The notes: generated by a model from the sequence alone, not told the origin. DNA of 64,000 nt from a virus (IMGVR_UViG_3300014050_000003:1-64000); one strand, 5' to 3'; positions 34,053 through 52,457 are shown, counted from the stretch's first letter. Program-made: numbers and translations.

Positions 34053-34229
34053 TCAAATTATTTTAAAAACTTTAAGCATTATTATGCCAGACATAATAAT
34101 ACCAACAAATCCAGTAATTGTTCTAATAAGTTCCATTTTATGGTTATGCTTGTCTACCCATATCTCAAACTTATCTCTGAGTTTACCAGCTTTTTCTAAT
34201 TTCTTGAGTTTCTTTTTACTTATTTTCAT
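34053..34229 (-). CDS. 58-aa basic membrane protein
   Basis: MKISKKKLKKLEKAGKLRDKFEIWVDKHNHKMELIRTITGFVGIIMSGIIMLKVFKII. Confidence 0.55.
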   Translation of the reverse strand: MKISKKKLKKLEKAGKLRDKFEIWVDKHNHKMELIRTITGFVGIIMSGIIMLKVFKII

Positions 34230-34626
34230 TTTTTTGAAATATAAAAATTATTTTTACCTTTTGGACATAATTTAATTATATATTCTTTTGCGGATTTATA
34301 ACCTTCTTTTGTTAAAGGAAATACTCCATGAAGAAAATTATCATTTTTAGAATGAATAGCGTAATATTTTTGTTTTTTAGTTTTAGGCATTTTTTTGTCT
34401 TTCATATTCTTGTATTAAATCTCTTAATAATTTAAGATGATGTACATCCCAACTATCTCCTGTGTCAGTTTTTTCTTTGTTTAAAAGGTCATAATATACG
34501 TTTTTTTCTATTATTTGATTCAATAGTGTTAGTATTTTATCATATAAATTATTCATTAATATATTATATTAGAATATTTGCAAAAAGTCAAAAATCGTGT
34601 ATAATCTTATATAGTTCTTTTACATT

Positions 34627-35014
34627 GGGCCCGAATTGGTTTCGATTTTATAGATCGAAATTAAAATGCAAGTGGAGGTTGAATCGAGGACTCCTTAAAA
34701 AGTTTCAATTATATTAACTGCCAAAACAGCTAAATATAAAGGTCATATCTCTGCTAGAGTTTCTCTAGTCGAGGAGACCGCTTCTGTAGCTTAAGTTCTA
34801 CAGCGTGACTACCTTGACACATCTATTGGATAGTTGCGTAATTAGATGTCTTATTATTAATAGTTTTTTTATTCTATTAATATTAAGTATTAAAAATAAA
34901 ATCGCTAAGTATGTTTGTTCTTTATCTATATGAAGCTAAAAACAAAAAGAACTAAACTTGTAGTATTTTAATTTAAATCTTTAAAAGACCGCAGTTCAAC
35001 TCTGCGCGGGTCCA
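34627..35014 (+). ncRNA. ssrA: tmRNA
   Basis: 5' GGGCCCGAATTGGTTTCGA and 3' GACCGCAG-TTCAACT-CTGCG-CGGGTCCA give an Ala acceptor stem with G3:U70. Resume context TAACT-GCC; tag ORF 34720-34794 AKTAKYKGHISARVSLVEETASVA*; TTGCAA-16-TATAAT promoter at 34578-34605. Confidence 0.92.
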
Positions 35015-35045
35015 AGTTTATTAAAAATAAGTGTAATATATCAAT

Positions 35046-36170: not shown

Positions 36171-37178
36171 TTAAATGATATTTTTGTTTCCAGAAAAAAT
36201 AATTTCAACATATTCATCAATATTATTACTAATATAAGATTTTATAAAAGATTGCATTGCTTTTAAAGTATTAAATTTATATAGATTATTATTTTGAAAT
36301 AATTTGTATGTATTTATTTGTTCAAGAATATCACATTTATTTATAATTAATTTTGTAACACCAGATATTTTTATAGCATCAATTAATTTATTTAAATTAA
36401 GCCAATTAACAATTCTACGTCTTCCAGTAGTTGACCCAAATTCTTTTCCAATTTCTATTACCATATTCAATACTTCATCATTCCATAAGCTTTCTGGAAA
36501 TAAAGGATCTACGCCACTTTTTGTATCATAAATTTTAGCTACTCCAATTATATCTCTTATTTTTTTAGGACTAAAACCTAAAGAGCAAGCATTATAAGGT
36601 AAAGTTTCGCTACTTGTTACATATGGATAATCTCCATAATTTATATCTAACCAAAAACTCTGCGCACCTTCACAAAGAATATTCCCTTTAAGTTCTCCAT
36701 CCCAAATATATTTTTTATCAATATAATCTTTTGCTAATTTTCCAATTCGTAGCATTTTGTCTGCATATGCTGGAGCAATTCCTTGTCCAGTTGTGCCAAG
36801 TTTTGGTTTTAAGAATTTAAGATCATACTGAATATGTCTTTCAGTAATGATATGAGCTTTAGGACTAACTTTAATTAAAGAAGTGTCGAAGCCTTCTTTT
36901 TGTAAATATTCTATTTCATCAAAAAATTTATCAATATTGATAACGCAATTTGGACCGATAATACTAAGTTTATCTTGAAAAACTCCACAAGGAATAATAT
37001 GAGTTTTATATTTTTTATCATTAAGATAAACTGTATGACCTGCGTTTGGACCGCCATTCCAACGACAAACAATATCATAATTTTTAGCAATAGCATTACT
37101 TATCTTGCCTTTGCCTTCATCTCCCCAAGCTAAACCGAAAATAATATCAACTGCTTTGACCATTTTGTTTTTTAGCAA
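36171..37178 (-). CDS. purA: Adenylosuccinate synthetase (short form; start may be 37163)
   Basis: WGDEGKGK, GGPNAGHT, GTT..GI.PAY.DK, EGAQ..LD...G.YPYVTSS, EFGSTTGRRR, K.D.L. Confidence 0.95.
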   Translation of the reverse strand: MLKNKMVKAVDIIFGLAWGDEGKGKISNAIAKNYDIVCRWNGGPNAGHTVYLNDKKYKTHIIPCGVFQDKLSIIGPNCVINIDKFFDEIEYLQKEGFDTSLIKVSPKAHIITERHIQYDLKFLKPKLGTTGQGIAPAYADKMLRIGKLAKDYIDKKYIWDGELKGNILCEGAQSFWLDINYGDYPYVTSSETLPYNACSLGFSPKKIRDIIGVAKIYDTKSGVDPLFPESLWNDEVLNMVIEIGKEFGSTTGRRRIVNWLNLNKLIDAIKISGVTKLIINKCDILEQINTYKLFQNNNLYKFNTLKAMQSFIKSYISNNIDEYVEIIFSGNKNII

Positions 37179-47635: not shown

Positions 47636-48700
47636 TTATAGCTTTAAATCACCAAAATCTTCGTCTTCTATATCAGTCTTTCTTGCACCAACTTTATAAC
47701 TAGAAATCTCTGTTTCTTGAGGTGCGACTTGGACTTTACTACTATCTAGATAACTATCTAACCATCCAGAAATAGGATTATCTTTTTGATTAAATATCTT
47801 TTTATAGCCAAGACTTCTGAGCCTAGAATCACATAACCATTTAGAATATCCATCTAAAACTTCAGCATTTAAACCTAATAAACTACCTTTACTAAATAGA
47901 TATTTAGACCATTCGCTTTCATTTTTTGCAGCTTGCTCATAAAAAGCGTATATTTTATCTTCACTTTTTTTAACTATATTAGTGAAACCTTCTTTGTCTT
48001 CATCTCTTAAAATTTTAAGTAAATTTTGGCTTACTGCAAAATGCAAAGCCTCATCTCTTTGAATAAATTTTATGATCTTAGAATTACCTTCCATCTTTCC
48101 ACGATATCCAAAATAGAAAGAACAGGCAAAAGAAACGTAAAACACAAGACCTTCCATTACATTAATAGAAAGAATAGCATCAAAAATCTTTTGTTTAGGA
48201 TCTTTCTTTTCATCATCACCAAGAATTTTATCAAAATTATTTCTAATTAATTCTGCACGGCTTGTAATTTCTTTATCTTCCATAATACTATCAAAAAATT
48301 TAGTTGCATCTGGATATACGTTATTTAAAAGATAAGAGTAAGAATAACTATGAATACCCTCAAATTGTGCCCAAGTATTCATACAAATTTCAAGTTCTGG
48401 ATTAGTAACATAATCTTTAAGACTATGAATACTTCTAGAAAGCATACTATCTCCAAGAGTTTGAAATCTAAGATTGCTATCAAAAACAAATCTTTCTGTA
48501 TCTGTTAAATTTTTATAATCACTACGATCTTTTCCTAAAGCTATTTCATGAGGCCACCAAAAATTTTCATTTTGTTTTTTAAACAATTCAAAAAATATAG
48601 GATATTTAAACCGATCATATCTTTGAAGATTCAAATCTTCTCCAAGAAATAATGGTTGTTTAGTAGTATCTATATTTTTAAAATTTAAAACTGTTTTCAT
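47636..48700 (-). CDS. nrdB: Ribonucleotide reductase class Ia beta subunit
   Basis: FWWP.E, FQT..DS, E.IHS.SY, LE...FYVSFACSF, IQRDE..H, QVAPQETEI.SY. Confidence 0.97.
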   Translation of the reverse strand: MKTVLNFKNIDTTKQPLFLGEDLNLQRYDRFKYPIFFELFKKQNENFWWPHEIALGKDRSDYKNLTDTERFVFDSNLRFQTLGDSMLSRSIHSLKDYVTNPELEICMNTWAQFEGIHSYSYSYLLNNVYPDATKFFDSIMEDKEITSRAELIRNNFDKILGDDEKKDPKQKIFDAILSINVMEGLVFYVSFACSFYFGYRGKMEGNSKIIKFIQRDEALHFAVSQNLLKILRDEDKEGFTNIVKKSEDKIYAFYEQAAKNESEWSKYLFSKGSLLGLNAEVLDGYSKWLCDSRLRSLGYKKIFNQKDNPISGWLDSYLDSSKVQVAPQETEISSYKVGARKTDIEDEDFGDLKL

Positions 48701-50949
48701 AATTTACATGCTCCACTTGAACAATCTCTATCTTCTTTTTGATTAAGAGACTGCTCTTTATCTCCATCGTCTGTATTATTGTAATAAAGACTAATTAATC
48801 CAAGGCTATATGCGTACATAATTTCTTTCATTACTTTAGCGTCTGGTAATATATTATTTTCATAATGACTATAGTTATAGTATACATTAGTTGATATAGC
48901 CATGTCAATATATTTTTGAATAACTGCATTAATTTTTAACAATCCAGTATTATCTTTAAGATCATAAGCTAATTCATAATTATCATCATATTTTCCAATT
49001 CCTGGAACCATAACTGGAAGTTTACCCATTTTACTAGTTTTATAAGTAATAAGACTACGAATAGGCTCAACTCCATTTGTTGAGCATTGAATAACTGAAC
49101 TACTTTCACAAGGCATACAAGAAGATAATGTAGAATGTCTTAATCCAAATTCTTTAATATCTTTCCTTAATTTTTCCCAATCAAGTGATAATTTTCTTTT
49201 AACTAACTCATCTACTTTATCTTTATATGTATCAATCGGAAGTATACCTTTAGAGTATTTAGTTTTATCAAATTTTTCACATTTGCCTTTTTCTTTAGCT
49301 AATTCAAGGCTACTTTTTAATAGATAGTATTGAAAATGTTCCATCCATTCATCAACAACAGATAATGACTTATCTGAACTGTATTTTAATTCATTTTTAG
49401 CGAGAAAAGCCGCAAGATTAGTTATACCAACTCCAAGACTTCTACGCTTTTTTGCAAAATTTTCAGCAGCAATATTAAAGTAATCTTGCAGATCTATGAT
49501 TTCATCAAGAAATCTTACGATAAGATCGCAGGTCTTTTCAAGATCTTGCCAGCTCTTTATTTCTAACATATTTACTGCCGAAAGTATACACATTCCAATC
49601 TCCCCATTTTTATCATGATAATCATTCAATGGAATAGTTGGATGAATAACTTCAGTGCAAAGATTACTCATTGTAACTTTATCTAACCAAGCTCCATGAT
49701 TATTTGCATGATCAACATTTAATATATAAATACGACCAGTTTCAACTCTCTCTTTAACTATTAGAGAAAATAGTTTACGAGCAGATATTTTCTTTTTAAT
49801 TTTTAATTTTTTAGATTCACACTCTTTATAAATTTTATCAAAATCTTTTGTTCCCCATGCTTCATAAAGTTCTGGAACTTCTGCATTATTGAATAAAGTG
49901 ATATCTTCATCTTTTAAAACTCTATCATAAAACAACTTACTCATTCCAACAGTATAATCTAATTTACGAACACGATTGTCATCTGTGCCAGCATTATTTT
50001 TTAATACTACAATATCTTCAATTTCATAATGCCACCATTGAATATTACAAGTTGCACTTCCACCTCTTAATCCGTTTTGTTGCCATGCTTTGACACTACT
50101 TTCATAAATTTTTAAGAATGGAATTAAACCTGTATGAACAACTTCACCATTTTTAATTGGTGAACCTATAGCTCTAATTTTACTAACATCAATACCAATA
50201 CCGCATCTATTAGCAGTAGCCATACTAACAGCCGTAGCACTAGCAGTAATACTTTCTCTAGTATCATCTACTCCAATTAAACAACAACTAGCATAATTTT
50301 TACTAGAAGTCCTAACTCCTGCCATTACTGGTGTTGGAAGATTAATTTTATGTTTACTAATAGCATCATAAAATTTTCTTACATAAGATAGTCTTGTTTC
50401 TATTGGATAGCGTGCAAAAGCATATGCTGCAATTAAAATATAAGCAAATTGTGGAGTTTCATAAATTTTACCATTAGTTCTATTTTTTATCAAATATTTA
50501 TCGCAAAGTTGTTTGATTCCAGCGTATGTAAAAATATAATCTCTATCATGGTCAATAAATTCACCAATTTTATTAATTTCATCTTCGGAATAATGATTTA
50601 ATATAGATTCATCATAAATTTTATTTTTTATACTTTCTTTTAGAAATTCTAATAATCTTGGAGCATGTTTACCTTTCCAGACATCTTTTCTTAATTGATA
50701 ATTCAAAAGTCTAGCAGCAACAAATTGATAGTTTGGTTTATCAAAAGAAATTAAGTTAGCTGCACTTTCAATCAACAGATTGTGTATTTCTTTTGTTGTT
50801 ATACCATCTGTAATATTTATTTTAGCATTGATTTCGATATCTGTAAGACTTACTCCTGAGTATCCATCTATTGCCCAATTGATTACTTTGTTAATTTTTT
50901 CTATGTTAAATTTTTCTGTAGTATTATTTCTTTTTTTTACATGTATCAT
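48697..50949 (-). CDS. nrdA: Ribonucleotide reductase class Ia alpha subunit with ATP cone
   Basis: ATP cone, PTP.MAG.RT, ASCC, GLRGG, SNLCTE, MP.ESSS, LYY, C-terminal C..GAC.L; no intein or intron seen. Confidence 0.97.
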   Translation of the reverse strand: MIHVKKRNNTTEKFNIEKINKVINWAIDGYSGVSLTDIEINAKINITDGITTKEIHNLLIESAANLISFDKPNYQFVAARLLNYQLRKDVWKGKHAPRLLEFLKESIKNKIYDESILNHYSEDEINKIGEFIDHDRDYIFTYAGIKQLCDKYLIKNRTNGKIYETPQFAYILIAAYAFARYPIETRLSYVRKFYDAISKHKINLPTPVMAGVRTSSKNYASCCLIGVDDTRESITASATAVSMATANRCGIGIDVSKIRAIGSPIKNGEVVHTGLIPFLKIYESSVKAWQQNGLRGGSATCNIQWWHYEIEDIVVLKNNAGTDDNRVRKLDYTVGMSKLFYDRVLKDEDITLFNNAEVPELYEAWGTKDFDKIYKECESKKLKIKKKISARKLFSLIVKERVETGRIYILNVDHANNHGAWLDKVTMSNLCTEVIHPTIPLNDYHDKNGEIGMCILSAVNMLEIKSWQDLEKTCDLIVRFLDEIIDLQDYFNIAAENFAKKRRSLGVGITNLAAFLAKNELKYSSDKSLSVVDEWMEHFQYYLLKSSLELAKEKGKCEKFDKTKYSKGILPIDTYKDKVDELVKRKLSLDWEKLRKDIKEFGLRHSTLSSCMPCESSSVIQCSTNGVEPIRSLITYKTSKMGKLPVMVPGIGKYDDNYELAYDLKDNTGLLKINAVIQKYIDMAISTNVYYNYSHYENNILPDAKVMKEIMYAYSLGLISLYYNNTDDGDKEQSLNQKEDRDCSSGACKL

Positions 50950-51103
50950 TTATAAAATCCTTTTATTAGAGATGTAAGTAATGTTACAGTATTTTTAACT
51001 TTTAAAAAAGAAAAAAAATAAAAGTTATCAACATTAAATATAAAACTTTAAATTAAGTGTACTGATTTAATATCTTATAAAAAATAATAACTTTTCTTTG
51101 ATA

Positions 51104-51395
51104 TCCTAATAGGCTTTACCTCGCAAAGATATATTTTGCAAGGTTGTTTATAGATCTTCGCCAACTTTTCTTTTGACTCCTTTTTCTTTAGCGTTTCTTC
51201 CAAAGAATGGCTACGGCATTTATAGGAACGCGGTTGGTTATTCCTGTGCATTTTGCCGTACCTTACACCTACATTTCGTTGTAAGCTTTTTAAACAAACA
51301 ACATTTTAATGGTCGTCAGCCTATGGGACGTTGCCATCGCAAAGCTAAGATACTAGAGGATTTATTTGACTATCCACAAAACTGCTTTATTAGGA
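51104..51395 (-). ncRNA. Candidate ~290-nt multibranched structured RNA
   Basis: Relatively GC-rich non-coding island behind a TTGACA(51435-40)/TATTAT promoter. The ends pair (TCCTAATA..TATTAGGA) and enclose several internal stems. Confidence 0.6.
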
Positions 51396-51467
51396 AGCTA
51401 TGTAATGATATATAATATATTTTTATTATTGATTTGTCAAATAAAAAGTGTAATTTTATACAATAAT

Positions 51468-52457
51468 ATGGAAATTGATTTTACAAGCGATATTCAAGCA
51501 GCAAAAAAAGGTAAAGCACCTTTAAATAAACCTTTTAGATTACCTTCTGGAAGTAAAAAGAAATTTGGTGTTTATGTAAAAAACGATAAAGGTAATACTG
51601 TAATGGTAAAATTTGGTGATCCAAATATGTCTATTAAAAGAGATAATCCAGCTAGACGTAAAGCTTATAGAGCAAGACATGGTTGCAGTAATCCAGGTCC
51701 AAAATGGAAAGCTAATTACTGGAGTTGCAAAATGTGGAGTAAAAAACCAGTTAGTAAAATTACTGGAAGTGAAGAAGAAATTACTTTAGAAGCAGATATT
51801 CAAGCTAAAAATAAAGGTCTTTGGTATAATATTCAACAAAAGAAAAAAAGAATGGGTAAAAATTATCGTCCAGCAAAACCAGGATCACCAGATCGTCCAA
51901 CACAAGAAGCTCTTAAAAAAGCTCAAGCTGAAGAATACGAATGGGATGGTGAAACAGAATTTGATCAAGCCGAACTTTTAAAACTTGATCCATCTCTTGC
52001 TCAAGTTCCAGAAATGCCAGAATCTCCAGAAGAAGAACTACAAGAATATAAAGATGATTTTTATGGTATGATTGTTGGCTCTATTAATTCTATACAAGTT
52101 CATGCTCAAAATATTTTAAATAAATTAGAAGATCCAATCGTAAAAGAAAATCTTACAGAACCATTCCTACAACAAATGGCAGCTCTTGCTGAAGATTATA
52201 TGATTACGATTCATAATTTTGTAATGTTTAATAAAGAAGATGAAAGTATAGCTTCAACAATGTTTAAAGTTGGAGATAAAGTTCAAAACATTAATCCAGC
52301 TTGCATGCATTATGGTAGCGAAGGAATTGTAAAAGAAATTAGAGAACTTCCAGAAAATATGGGATATGCAGTAATTTATGAATGCACAAATAATGGTCCA
52401 ACTTGGAAAATGGGCGATGTGATTGGCAAAACTGAAATTCAATTAAGAAAAATATAA
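51468..52457 (+). CDS. Modular conserved phage protein (probable internal head protein)
   Basis: Start set at MEIDFT (GTGTAA upstream). Modules: KKF.VYVK..GN...VKFGDP...F/YRARH.C...A.YWSC..W; GLW.NI..K; and FKVGDKV...HYGSEG.V. Confidence 0.7.
   Translation: MEIDFTSDIQAAKKGKAPLNKPFRLPSGSKKKFGVYVKNDKGNTVMVKFGDPNMSIKRDNPARRKAYRARHGCSNPGPKWKANYWSCKMWSKKPVSKITGSEEEITLEADIQAKNKGLWYNIQQKKKRMGKNYRPAKPGSPDRPTQEALKKAQAEEYEWDGETEFDQAELLKLDPSLAQVPEMPESPEEELQEYKDDFYGMIVGSINSIQVHAQNILNKLEDPIVKENLTEPFLQQMAALAEDYMITIHNFVMFNKEDESIASTMFKVGDKVQNINPACMHYGSEGIVKEIRELPENMGYAVIYECTNNGPTWKMGDVIGKTEIQLRKI

Follow-up and report, generated by a model that had tools for sequence, protein, structure and literature searches.

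A free-standing gene for a pseudoknotted non-coding RNA with two co-evolving arms in an uncultured phage

The question raised by the locus studied here is what lies in a gene-free stretch upstream of nrdA in an uncultured phage, and whether an RNA of its own is encoded there. The stretch belongs to the first 64,000 nucleotides of the virus record IMGVR_UViG_3300014050_000003 (positions 1-64000, hereafter the window), where it is bounded by nrdA, encoding the large subunit of a class I ribonucleotide reductase (RNR), and by a divergent gene for a protein of 329 amino acids (aa). The record as a whole is AT-rich, measures 121 kb, is estimated to be 77% complete and carries one transfer-messenger RNA (tmRNA) gene and three tRNA genes. 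An initial annotation of the window had placed in this stretch a novel large structured RNA, either trans-acting or a 5' regulator of the RNR operon. In general, large and highly structured RNAs of bacteria and phages without a known job are rare, and past cases have been ribozymes, scaffolds of ribonucleoproteins and, recently, RNA-only cages. In the present case, the stretch holds an independent gene whose product is a stable non-coding RNA (ncRNA) of about 315 nt. The gene has its own promoter, and the RNA has a pseudoknotted core and two arms which co-evolve, while the function proposed below, the presentation of these arms in trans to one partner, is put forward tentatively.

An RNA gene with its own promoter

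The gene-free stretch separates nrdA (48697-50949, minus strand; Pfam matches to Ribonuc_red_lgC at 1.2e-126 and to an ATP-cone), next to which lies nrdB for the small subunit (47636-48700, minus strand), from the 329-aa gene (51468-52457, plus strand), which has no Pfam family. Its GC content is 0.39-0.43 over 51100-51349 (measured in 150-nt windows), against 0.15-0.23 on both flanks, in agreement with the non-coding, GC-richer island described initially. Two features delimit the gene (RNA coordinates are window positions on the minus strand throughout, and helix positions have been read from alignment column numbers):

51412-51440, minus strand: sigma-70-type promoter, with the -35 box TTGACA (51440-51435), a 17-nt spacer and the -10 box TATTAT (51417-51412); 11 of 12 consensus positions
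51089-51403, minus strand: conserved RNA of about 315 nt, as delimited by the alignments; a covariance model (CM), R1, recovers the same span at 261 bits

The promoter, which had already been pointed out at this place and on this strand, is kept in all 51 relatives with upstream sequence (TTGACA, 17 nt, TAnnAT), and in these relatives the TAnnAT box stops 6-10 nt ahead of a conserved start, ACAUAG. We infer the 5' end of the RNA from the promoter together with the onset of conservation, and the 3' end from the steep fall in conservation, sequence identity collapsing right past the second of two purine tracts (arm 2, see below). The conserved span runs from 51403 to 51089. The interval proposed at first, 51104-51440, did contain a promoter and an RNA, but its left edge was 15 nt too short, conservation continuing to 51089 and taking in the second invariant purine tract.

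The homologue search recovered 62 distinct full-length relatives, with compensatory changes among them, from uncultured viral and lake-metagenome contigs. An exact pattern joining the two most conserved tracts was found in 61 viral contigs and a pattern restricted to the 5' half in 19 metagenome contigs, 13 of them with new sequences; nhmmer, in turn, detected the RNA in 8 of the 80 loci fetched by means of the 329-aa protein. Both tracts were present in all 12 new metagenome sequences that reach the 3' part, the thirteenth ending short of it. Three sequence groups can be distinguished, namely A, to which the window belongs (83-86% identical to it), B, which holds the majority, and C, groups B and C being about 59-66% identical to the window. 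No match to 50950-51470 was obtained by blastn ('distant') among 50,697 phage records, nor by CM R1 in the Pelagibacter phages Mosig and HTVC008M or in Phage C48C1. A looser pattern built on a single hairpin (H4, see below) led, among the matches listed, to at least 95 new loci, in none of which nhmmer found the RNA, and a tmRNA-anchored search for divergent relatives gave 25 new loci with only two truncated matches.

As regards the strand, the helix cells of the alignment contain 213 G-U against 37 A-C combinations, which identifies the minus strand as that of the RNA, since an RNA read from the plus strand would predict the opposite. The comparison with shuffled controls, called for at the outset, was also favourable: the folding energy of the minus strand is -77.7 kcal/mol (z = -2.73), a level reached by 1 shuffle in 100, and that of the plus strand is unremarkable (z = -1.25). 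The alternative of a DNA-level element, such as an origin or a set of protein-binding repeats, or of a small protein gene, with no RNA at all, could draw on two direct repeats of ~18 bp lying 74 bp apart and on open frames of 58 and 80 codons which overlap the region. Nevertheless, the G-U/A-C asymmetry and the compensatory changes are signatures of RNA, the groups differ by indels whose lengths are not divisible by three and the open frames are not conserved, the longest ones across the relatives varying from 30 to 72 codons in sense and from 44 to 97 in antisense. Such an alternative is scarcely credible.

The RNA is not tied to nrdA either. Some 140 nt separate the RNA from the start of a downstream, co-directed nrdA in the window and five relatives, and no terminator was detected between the two, an arrangement which would suit a cis-acting leader or riboswitch of nrdA. 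This arrangement is, however, peculiar to group A (6 of the 62 loci), where the RNA, nrdA, nrdB and two small open reading frames (ORFs) all run in one direction. In 30 loci the same four-gene RNR cassette is inverted and converges on the 3' end of the RNA, while the other 26 have no RNR gene in view downstream; several of these are short, and at least eleven of them show four or more other genes instead. Moreover, conservation stops 140 nt before nrdA and no riboswitch family, cobalamin (RF00174) or other, is matched, so that a leader is very improbable. Of the two roles considered at first, therefore, the trans-acting one stands, and the regulator of the RNR operon does not, since RNR genes lie downstream and co-directed in only those six loci; read-through into nrdA is possible in the window's group.

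The gene is single-copy in the 121-kb record. Since its promoter is of the host type (sigma-70), the RNA is probably made early in infection. A weak hint of expression comes from the metatranscriptomes of two other studies, in which contigs 195 and 218 nt long fall within the RNA at 90-95% identity. The RNA runs X3 and X4, which belong to the study of the likely source sample, cover genes and RNA alike, and are thus uninformative on transcription.

Fold and comparison with known RNA families

A structure model was derived from groups A, B and C, its pairs being counted on a plain MAFFT alignment (A2) of 49 distinct sequences, not fitted to the structure. The model comprises 79 pairs in 15 helical segments, which make up nine helices (H1-H9) and three pseudoknots (PK1-PK3). 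From the 5' to the 3' end, with partner strands kept together, its elements are:

51384-51398, minus strand: H1, a 4-bp hairpin (51395-51398 with 51384-51387), 100% paired, compensatory changes in 3 of 4 pairs; its loop, 51391-51394, forms PK1
51352-51378, minus strand: H2 hairpin, 80% paired on the MAFFT alignment, its length and register differing among the three groups
51343-51351, minus strand: 5' strand of H3, a long-range helix enclosing H4-H8 and arm 1; compensatory changes in 7 of 9 pairs
51152-51162, minus strand: 3' strand of H3, pairing with 51343-51351
51308-51338, minus strand: H4 hairpin, composed of H4a (51334-51338/51308-51312) and H4b (51327-51330/51314-51317), 96% and 95% paired
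51318-51324 with 51109-51115, minus strand: PK2, between the H4 loop and the 3' region; 7 pairs, 99.4% paired, compensatory changes in 4
51277-51303, minus strand: H5 hairpin, 87.5% paired, compensatory changes in 4 of 5 pairs; large loop with an invariant UGU
51209-51272, minus strand: core domain of PK3, H6 and H7, 98.0%, 97.7% and 99.0% paired, with compensatory changes in 2, 3 and 3 pairs
51267-51272 with 51233-51238, minus strand: PK3, between the single strand before H6 and the H7 loop; 6 pairs, 2 compensatory
51254-51262/51209-51218, minus strand: H6, enclosing H7 (51241-51244/51225-51228)
51185-51206, minus strand: H8, a variable hairpin, 96.5% paired, compensatory changes in 7 of 8 pairs
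51165-51182, minus strand: arm 1, a purine-rich module NNGGAG-U-Y-AAAAGAAAAGU, unpaired in the model; GGAGU.AAAAGAAAAGU is invariant
51118-51144, minus strand: H9 hairpin, then an invariant AGG.AAAG; outer and inner helices 90% and 94% paired
51090-51108, minus strand: arm 2, the 3'-terminal UNGGAUAU-Y-AAAGAAAAGU, of which the four leading bases (51105-51108) serve as the 3' strand of PK1

Standard pairs occupy 94.2% of the cells, compared with 85.0% in shuffles, and 41 of the 79 pairs show compensatory change on both sides, compared with 29.0 +/- 2.6 in shuffled alignments, none of 500 shuffles reaching 41. Furthermore, the covariation score of 0.298 falls to 0.154 on shuffling and to 0.043-0.082 when the partners are slid by 1-3 columns. 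The count of further pair types is unexceptional (86 versus 82.8, with 102 of 500 shuffles reaching 86). In H4, for instance, columns 77/94 form CG in 27 sequences and UA in 22, and in PK1 (99% paired), by which the foot of arm 2 is joined to the H1 loop, the pair 12/320 is AU in 34, UG in 9 and UA in 5. As for H9, the inner helix has compensatory changes in 2 of 3 pairs, and the outer one shows one-sided variation (G-U to G-C) in 5 of 6. In the H5 loop (51277-51303) each group carries, by eye, a 6-nt self-complementary word at differing positions, which may be a kissing-loop site or chance.

Seven pairings had been proposed in the initial annotation, and five of them are borne out by covariation: TCCTAATA/TATTAGGA, TAG-T-ATCTT/AAGAT-CTA, ATGG-CGTC/GACG-CCAT, TACGGCA..AGGAA/TTCCT..TGCCGTA and ACCTTGCAAA/TTTGCGAGGT. 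The pairing between the two ends of the RNA does exist, but as a pseudoknot of the loop of the 4-bp 5' hairpin with the 3' region. As for the remaining two, CTTACA/TGTAAG and GCCA/TGGC, they clash with helices that covary (H5/PK3 and H3), no equivalent being visible by eye in groups B and C of A2. What makes this RNA notable is the combination of compactness (~315 nt), unusually clean covariation and three pseudoknots.

The comparison with known families was carried out against the 4227 models of Rfam 15, a match being accepted when its score was at or above the gathering score of the family. On this basis, only a tmRNA and three tRNAs were detected in the window, all of them elsewhere than the RNA. 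Lowering the threshold to E<=10 over 50900-51520 added three chance-level matches only, RybB (17.7 bits where 40 are needed, and on the wrong strand), rox1 and bxd_4, while the loci of groups B and C gave tmRNA only at E<=1. Thus no family is matched in groups A, B or C, and the lack of RNase P, cobalamin and group I intron signatures noted at first agrees with the absence of matches to RF00010, RF00011, RF00373, RF00174 and RF00028. Nor did a search of open-access papers and bioRxiv, supplements excluded, bring up a description of the RNA. Consequently, with respect to Rfam 15 and this literature the family can be called demonstrably new; with 62 homologues, strong covariation, the 213 to 37 asymmetry and an invariant promoter, the claim of a novel large structured RNA is upheld. 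This novelty is shown for the family only.

Three known RNAs deserve comparison. RNase P RNA (RF00010/RF00011) is alike in size and in having a long-range pseudoknot, and the strand GAGG(U/G)AAAG(C/U)C after H9 recalls its CR-I/P4 motif. In this RNA, however, the CR-I-like strand (51109-51115 and the preceding bases) pairs with the H4 hairpin loop, unlike P4, in which a strand after P3 pairs with one close to the 3' end; the helix order, as read from the model, is not mappable to P1-P4 even when circularly permuted, and no CM match was obtained. A group I intron was discarded because the RNA lies between genes, has its own promoter and does not match RF00028, its pseudoknots connecting loop to tail and not being P3/P7-like. 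The tmRNA (RF00023) is alike in pseudoknots and size, is phage-encoded and is the immediate neighbour in most relatives, but the present RNA has no tRNA-like ends and no tag frame, and the only tmRNA called in the window by ARAGORN and Rfam is that at 34627-35015.

A fold of this kind also invites the idea of a ribozyme or self-processing RNA, the arms serving as guides that hold pyrimidine-rich substrates, or the RNA excising its own 3' end. The three pseudoknots, the many invariant unpaired nucleotides and a sharp 3' boundary without terminator would be in line with it. Nevertheless, no ribozyme family is matched and the phage genomes yielded no candidate substrate, and we consider this explanation distinctly improbable.

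Two co-evolving arms and their possible partner

A striking trait of the RNA is its design: the same sequence is presented in two copies, and evolution has kept both alike to the letter; to our knowledge, a duplicated purine arm has no counterpart. Both arms share the form U-N-GGA-(G or UA)-U-Y-AAA(A)GAAAAGU, one copy being internal and the other at the 3' end. In arm 1 (GGAGU-Y-AAAAGAAAAGU) and arm 2 (GGAUAU-Y-AAAGAAAAGU) all positions but Y are invariant, also in the metagenome sequences, which had been found without using the arms, and 17 positions per arm are invariant across groups A, B and C, whose overall identity is only about 60-65%. Patterns which freed one arm each time yielded a single new locus, incomplete (L238), and no single-arm relative was seen. 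In 185,579 prokaryote species genomes the two-arm pattern had no match; the 17-mer of arm 2 alone gave at least 120 scattered matches in cellular genomes. Within the window, the arm 12-mer is not enriched (3 matches versus 1.7 expected).

Of the 62 distinct sequences, 45 have C at position Y of both arms and 17 have U there, with no mixed case. The U/U sequences make up the bulk of group C and include three group B members, and one group C member is C/C, which we read as at least two switches, one within group B and one within group C. An association scan revealed no RNA column pairing with Y, the only other associated column being 213, in the variable H8. The five-base feet of the arms, in turn, change together with the H1 loop: CCCAA or UCCAA occurs with UUGGA in both feet (34 sequences), UUCUA with UGGGA in both (8), and UCCUA with (A/C/U)AGGA and UAGGA (5). 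Since both feet complement the H1 loop, the latter can pair with either arm, and the arm base N is among the bases that pair with it.

As a preferred explanation, held with rather less than even confidence, we propose that this is an early, trans-acting RNA which presents two identical single-stranded arms to one partner. Transcribed early in infection from its host-type sigma-70 promoter, it would expose, on a rigid core, an invariant arm sequence twice to a common partner in trans. The 11-12 purine-rich bases per arm which never vary, and which have no internal partner, argue for an external conserved partner reading them, all varying parts (arm feet and every helix) varying in step with internal partners; and the copies being kept identical, Y included, suggests that one partner reads both. 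Such a partner could be a sequence-specific single-strand RNA-binding protein or a pyrimidine-rich host or phage RNA, and the RNA would then work as a bivalent decoy or as a recruiting platform in host take-over. The H1 loop may fix the geometry of one arm, or toggle between the two. The translation or ribosome-rescue machinery would be the first candidate, a guess made because the RNA gene adjoins the phage tmRNA gene in most relatives. The proposed function resembles that of CsrB/RsmZ and 6S RNA, trans-acting RNAs in which repeated GGA-containing or single-stranded motifs titrate one partner; here, in contrast, there are two copies of the motif only and a rigid pseudoknotted core, and neither family is matched. 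In any case, the arms offer a direct experimental handle on function.

Several observations weigh against this proposal. No partner of the arms was found in the phage genomes, in the tmRNA or as a clade-enriched bacterial sequence: duplex scans of the genomes G000, G002 and G003 gave the gene's own antisense as the only long arm complement, and no bacterial clade was enriched among the arm-2 17-mer matches listed (at least 120). The tmRNA columns do not follow Y within group B. The co-variation of Y itself rests on about two events, and gene conversion between the repeats could explain it; equally, the arms could be where the RNA makes contact with itself, be it in its tertiary structure or between molecules. 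A mimic of the ribosome-binding site (Shine-Dalgarno) is not favoured, since the genes of these phages largely lack such sites, G amounting to at most 0.21 at any position upstream of 91 ORFs. As for the link with ribosome rescue, tmRNA and RNA lie 6.6-16 kb apart in group A, so that adjacency elsewhere may be mere synteny, and 8 of 9 fragmentary genomes (31-70% complete) with this tmRNA gave no match to the RNA, the match in the ninth being spurious. Finally, the evidence of expression consists of contigs that have neither strand nor ends, from libraries which can contain DNA, and no intrinsic terminator was found 3' of the RNA, its 3' end being placed by conservation for this reason.

If the arms contact the RNA itself, the product may be an RNA-only homo-oligomer, in which the H1 loop and the arms, perhaps with self-complementary hexamers of the H5 loop, would provide contacts between copies, and the assembly would be the functional object. 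The types for comparison, ROOL (RF03087, roughly 580 nt) and GOLLD (RF01998, roughly 800 nt), often adjoin tRNA-like genes and are likewise large, pseudoknotted, free-standing ncRNA genes of phages and prophages with many conserved unpaired nucleotides. In favour of such an assembly, a single loop is complementary to two receptor sites which are equivalent and share their compensatory changes, something hard to exploit in full within one molecule; invariance extends to many unpaired nucleotides; like ROOL and GOLLD, the RNA is carried by phages and adjoins a tRNA-like gene; and the self-complementary words seen by eye in the H5 loops could serve as further contacts. However, one donor loop for two receptors gives no closed stoichiometry, the palindromes are differently placed and, by our estimate, about one in three AT-rich loops of this kind would contain one by chance, and the present RNA, at about 315 nt, is half the size of ROOL or smaller and belongs to freshwater T4-like phages. 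The excerpted text of a preprint describes ROOL and GOLLD as forming RNA-only multimers (bioRxiv 10.1101/2024.12.08.627333). No likeness to ROOL, GOLLD or OLE was found in sequence or by CM, ROOL and GOLLD remaining unmatched even at E<=10. On balance, a homo-oligomer is unlikely, though worth bearing in mind. Models of raiA and HEARO, like those of ROOL, GOLLD and OLE, were tried and rejected, none being matched and no IscB or TnpB neighbour being present, as judged by sizes and PHROG matches only.

The neighbourhood of the tmRNA suggests another explanation, in which the RNA would be an accessory of the phage trans-translation module, acting with or on the neighbouring tmRNA or on the ribosomes that the tmRNA rescues. 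The tmRNA gene lies divergently upstream in 43 of the 62 loci, with the order tmRNA and a 69-aa ORF on one strand and the RNA on the other, an order found also in one complete genome (G003, 171,916 bp; tmRNA at 70338-70725, minus strand, RNA at 70981-71288, plus strand), and of the relatives of the window that were looked at, all those long enough carried both RNAs. Against this stand the distance within group A (in the window, 16 kb separate the RNA from the tmRNA, a one-piece gene at 34627-35015 on the plus strand scoring 108.9 bits in Rfam) and eight of the nine tmRNA-bearing fragments, themselves 31-70% complete, in which the RNA was not found. Moreover, no tmRNA column covaries with the arms, and the best arm-tmRNA duplex reaches only -11.3 kcal/mol. 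Among marine relatives, Mosig and HTVC008M have no R1 match, and Melnitz, which the excerpted text of its paper reports to carry a tmRNA (PMC9004378), gave no relative of the RNA in the blastn search of the phage collection, R1 not having been run on it; that same excerpt describes, besides the tmRNA, a glutamine riboswitch and nothing like the present RNA. This accessory role has, in our judgement, an outside chance.

A bolder idea, and a long shot, is that of a new class of catalytic or machine-like phage RNA tied to translation or ribosome rescue. Its core would be an active site or docking body and its arms twin guides, holding either a pyrimidine-rich sequence of host RNA in duplicate or two subunits of a host factor, the phage reprogramming the translation apparatus of the host together with its own tmRNA.

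Two further candidates concerning the arms were discarded. RegB prefers GGAG or GGAU followed by an A-rich stretch, sites which the arms resemble, but a RegB/S1-processed RNA of the T4 early type was rejected, since PF10715 had no match at E<=1 in any of four genomes, the complete G003 included. Two arm-like words, GGAG..YAAA(A)GAAAAG, were observed on the minus strand at L239:1961-1978 and L239:3707-3722 (G000 95360-95377 and 97106-97121, outside the window), where 0.1 are expected per genome and 1 of 200 simulations reaches two, the pattern having been chosen after one of them was seen. They lie in different frames of a single 1416-aa ORF without homologue in three related genomes, and their being targets of the arms is probably illusory, a product of chance.

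Neighbouring genes and carriers

The neighbours of the RNA are RNR genes, small ORFs and the tmRNA, and in the neighbourhood set 24 ORFs represent an HNH or endonuclease VII-type homing endonuclease. Many loci of group B have a free-standing 183-aa endonuclease (e.g. L099:672-1223, minus strand; PHROG endonuclease, endonuclease VII, HNH) inserted by the tmRNA/RNA pair, which looks like a homing endonuclease using the conserved RNA region as landing site. Such insertions fit a rearrangement-prone region. The ancestral order looks like tmRNA, ORF, RNA, small ORFs, nrdB and nrdA, with group A carrying an inversion or translocation. The ORF between tmRNA and RNA is the conserved 69-aa one (relatives L082-L142, e.g. 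L137:455-664, minus strand); it is co-oriented with the tmRNA, may be co-transcribed with it, has no Pfam or PHROG family and has no homologue in the genome of the window. For the tmRNA of the window, ARAGORN predicts an unusual tag of 24 residues ending in ASVA, and the same tag is predicted in G003. On the other side of the RNA, the N-terminal ~90 residues of the 329-aa protein are a module common to Roseobacter, Pelagibacter and Flavobacterium phages, Nitrosopumilaceae viruses and other marine and freshwater phages; it was met in 80 related loci and is annotated as 'HVA1 family protein' in one record.

The carriers of the RNA are T4-like phages. By nrdA, the closest cultured relatives of the window are the T4-like Pelagibacter myophages Mosig and HTVC008M (52-53% amino-acid identity), both filed under Kyanoviridae. 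Sequencing runs place the carriers in lakes, the stretch or part of it being present in 20 rows of public runs from 14 studies labelled freshwater or lake water metagenome, with at least half of the sampled words in 6 rows only.

Elsewhere in the window, three small ORFs (58, 59 and 57 aa; 34053-34556, minus strand) were observed between a tRNA pair and the tmRNA, the 57-aa one resembling, by eye, a small ORF which adjoins the RNA in G003. In addition, a 335-aa ORF at 36171-37178 (minus strand) shows a GDEGKGK-type motif at its N-terminus, presumably that of adenylosuccinate synthetase (PurA), and could be an auxiliary metabolic gene.

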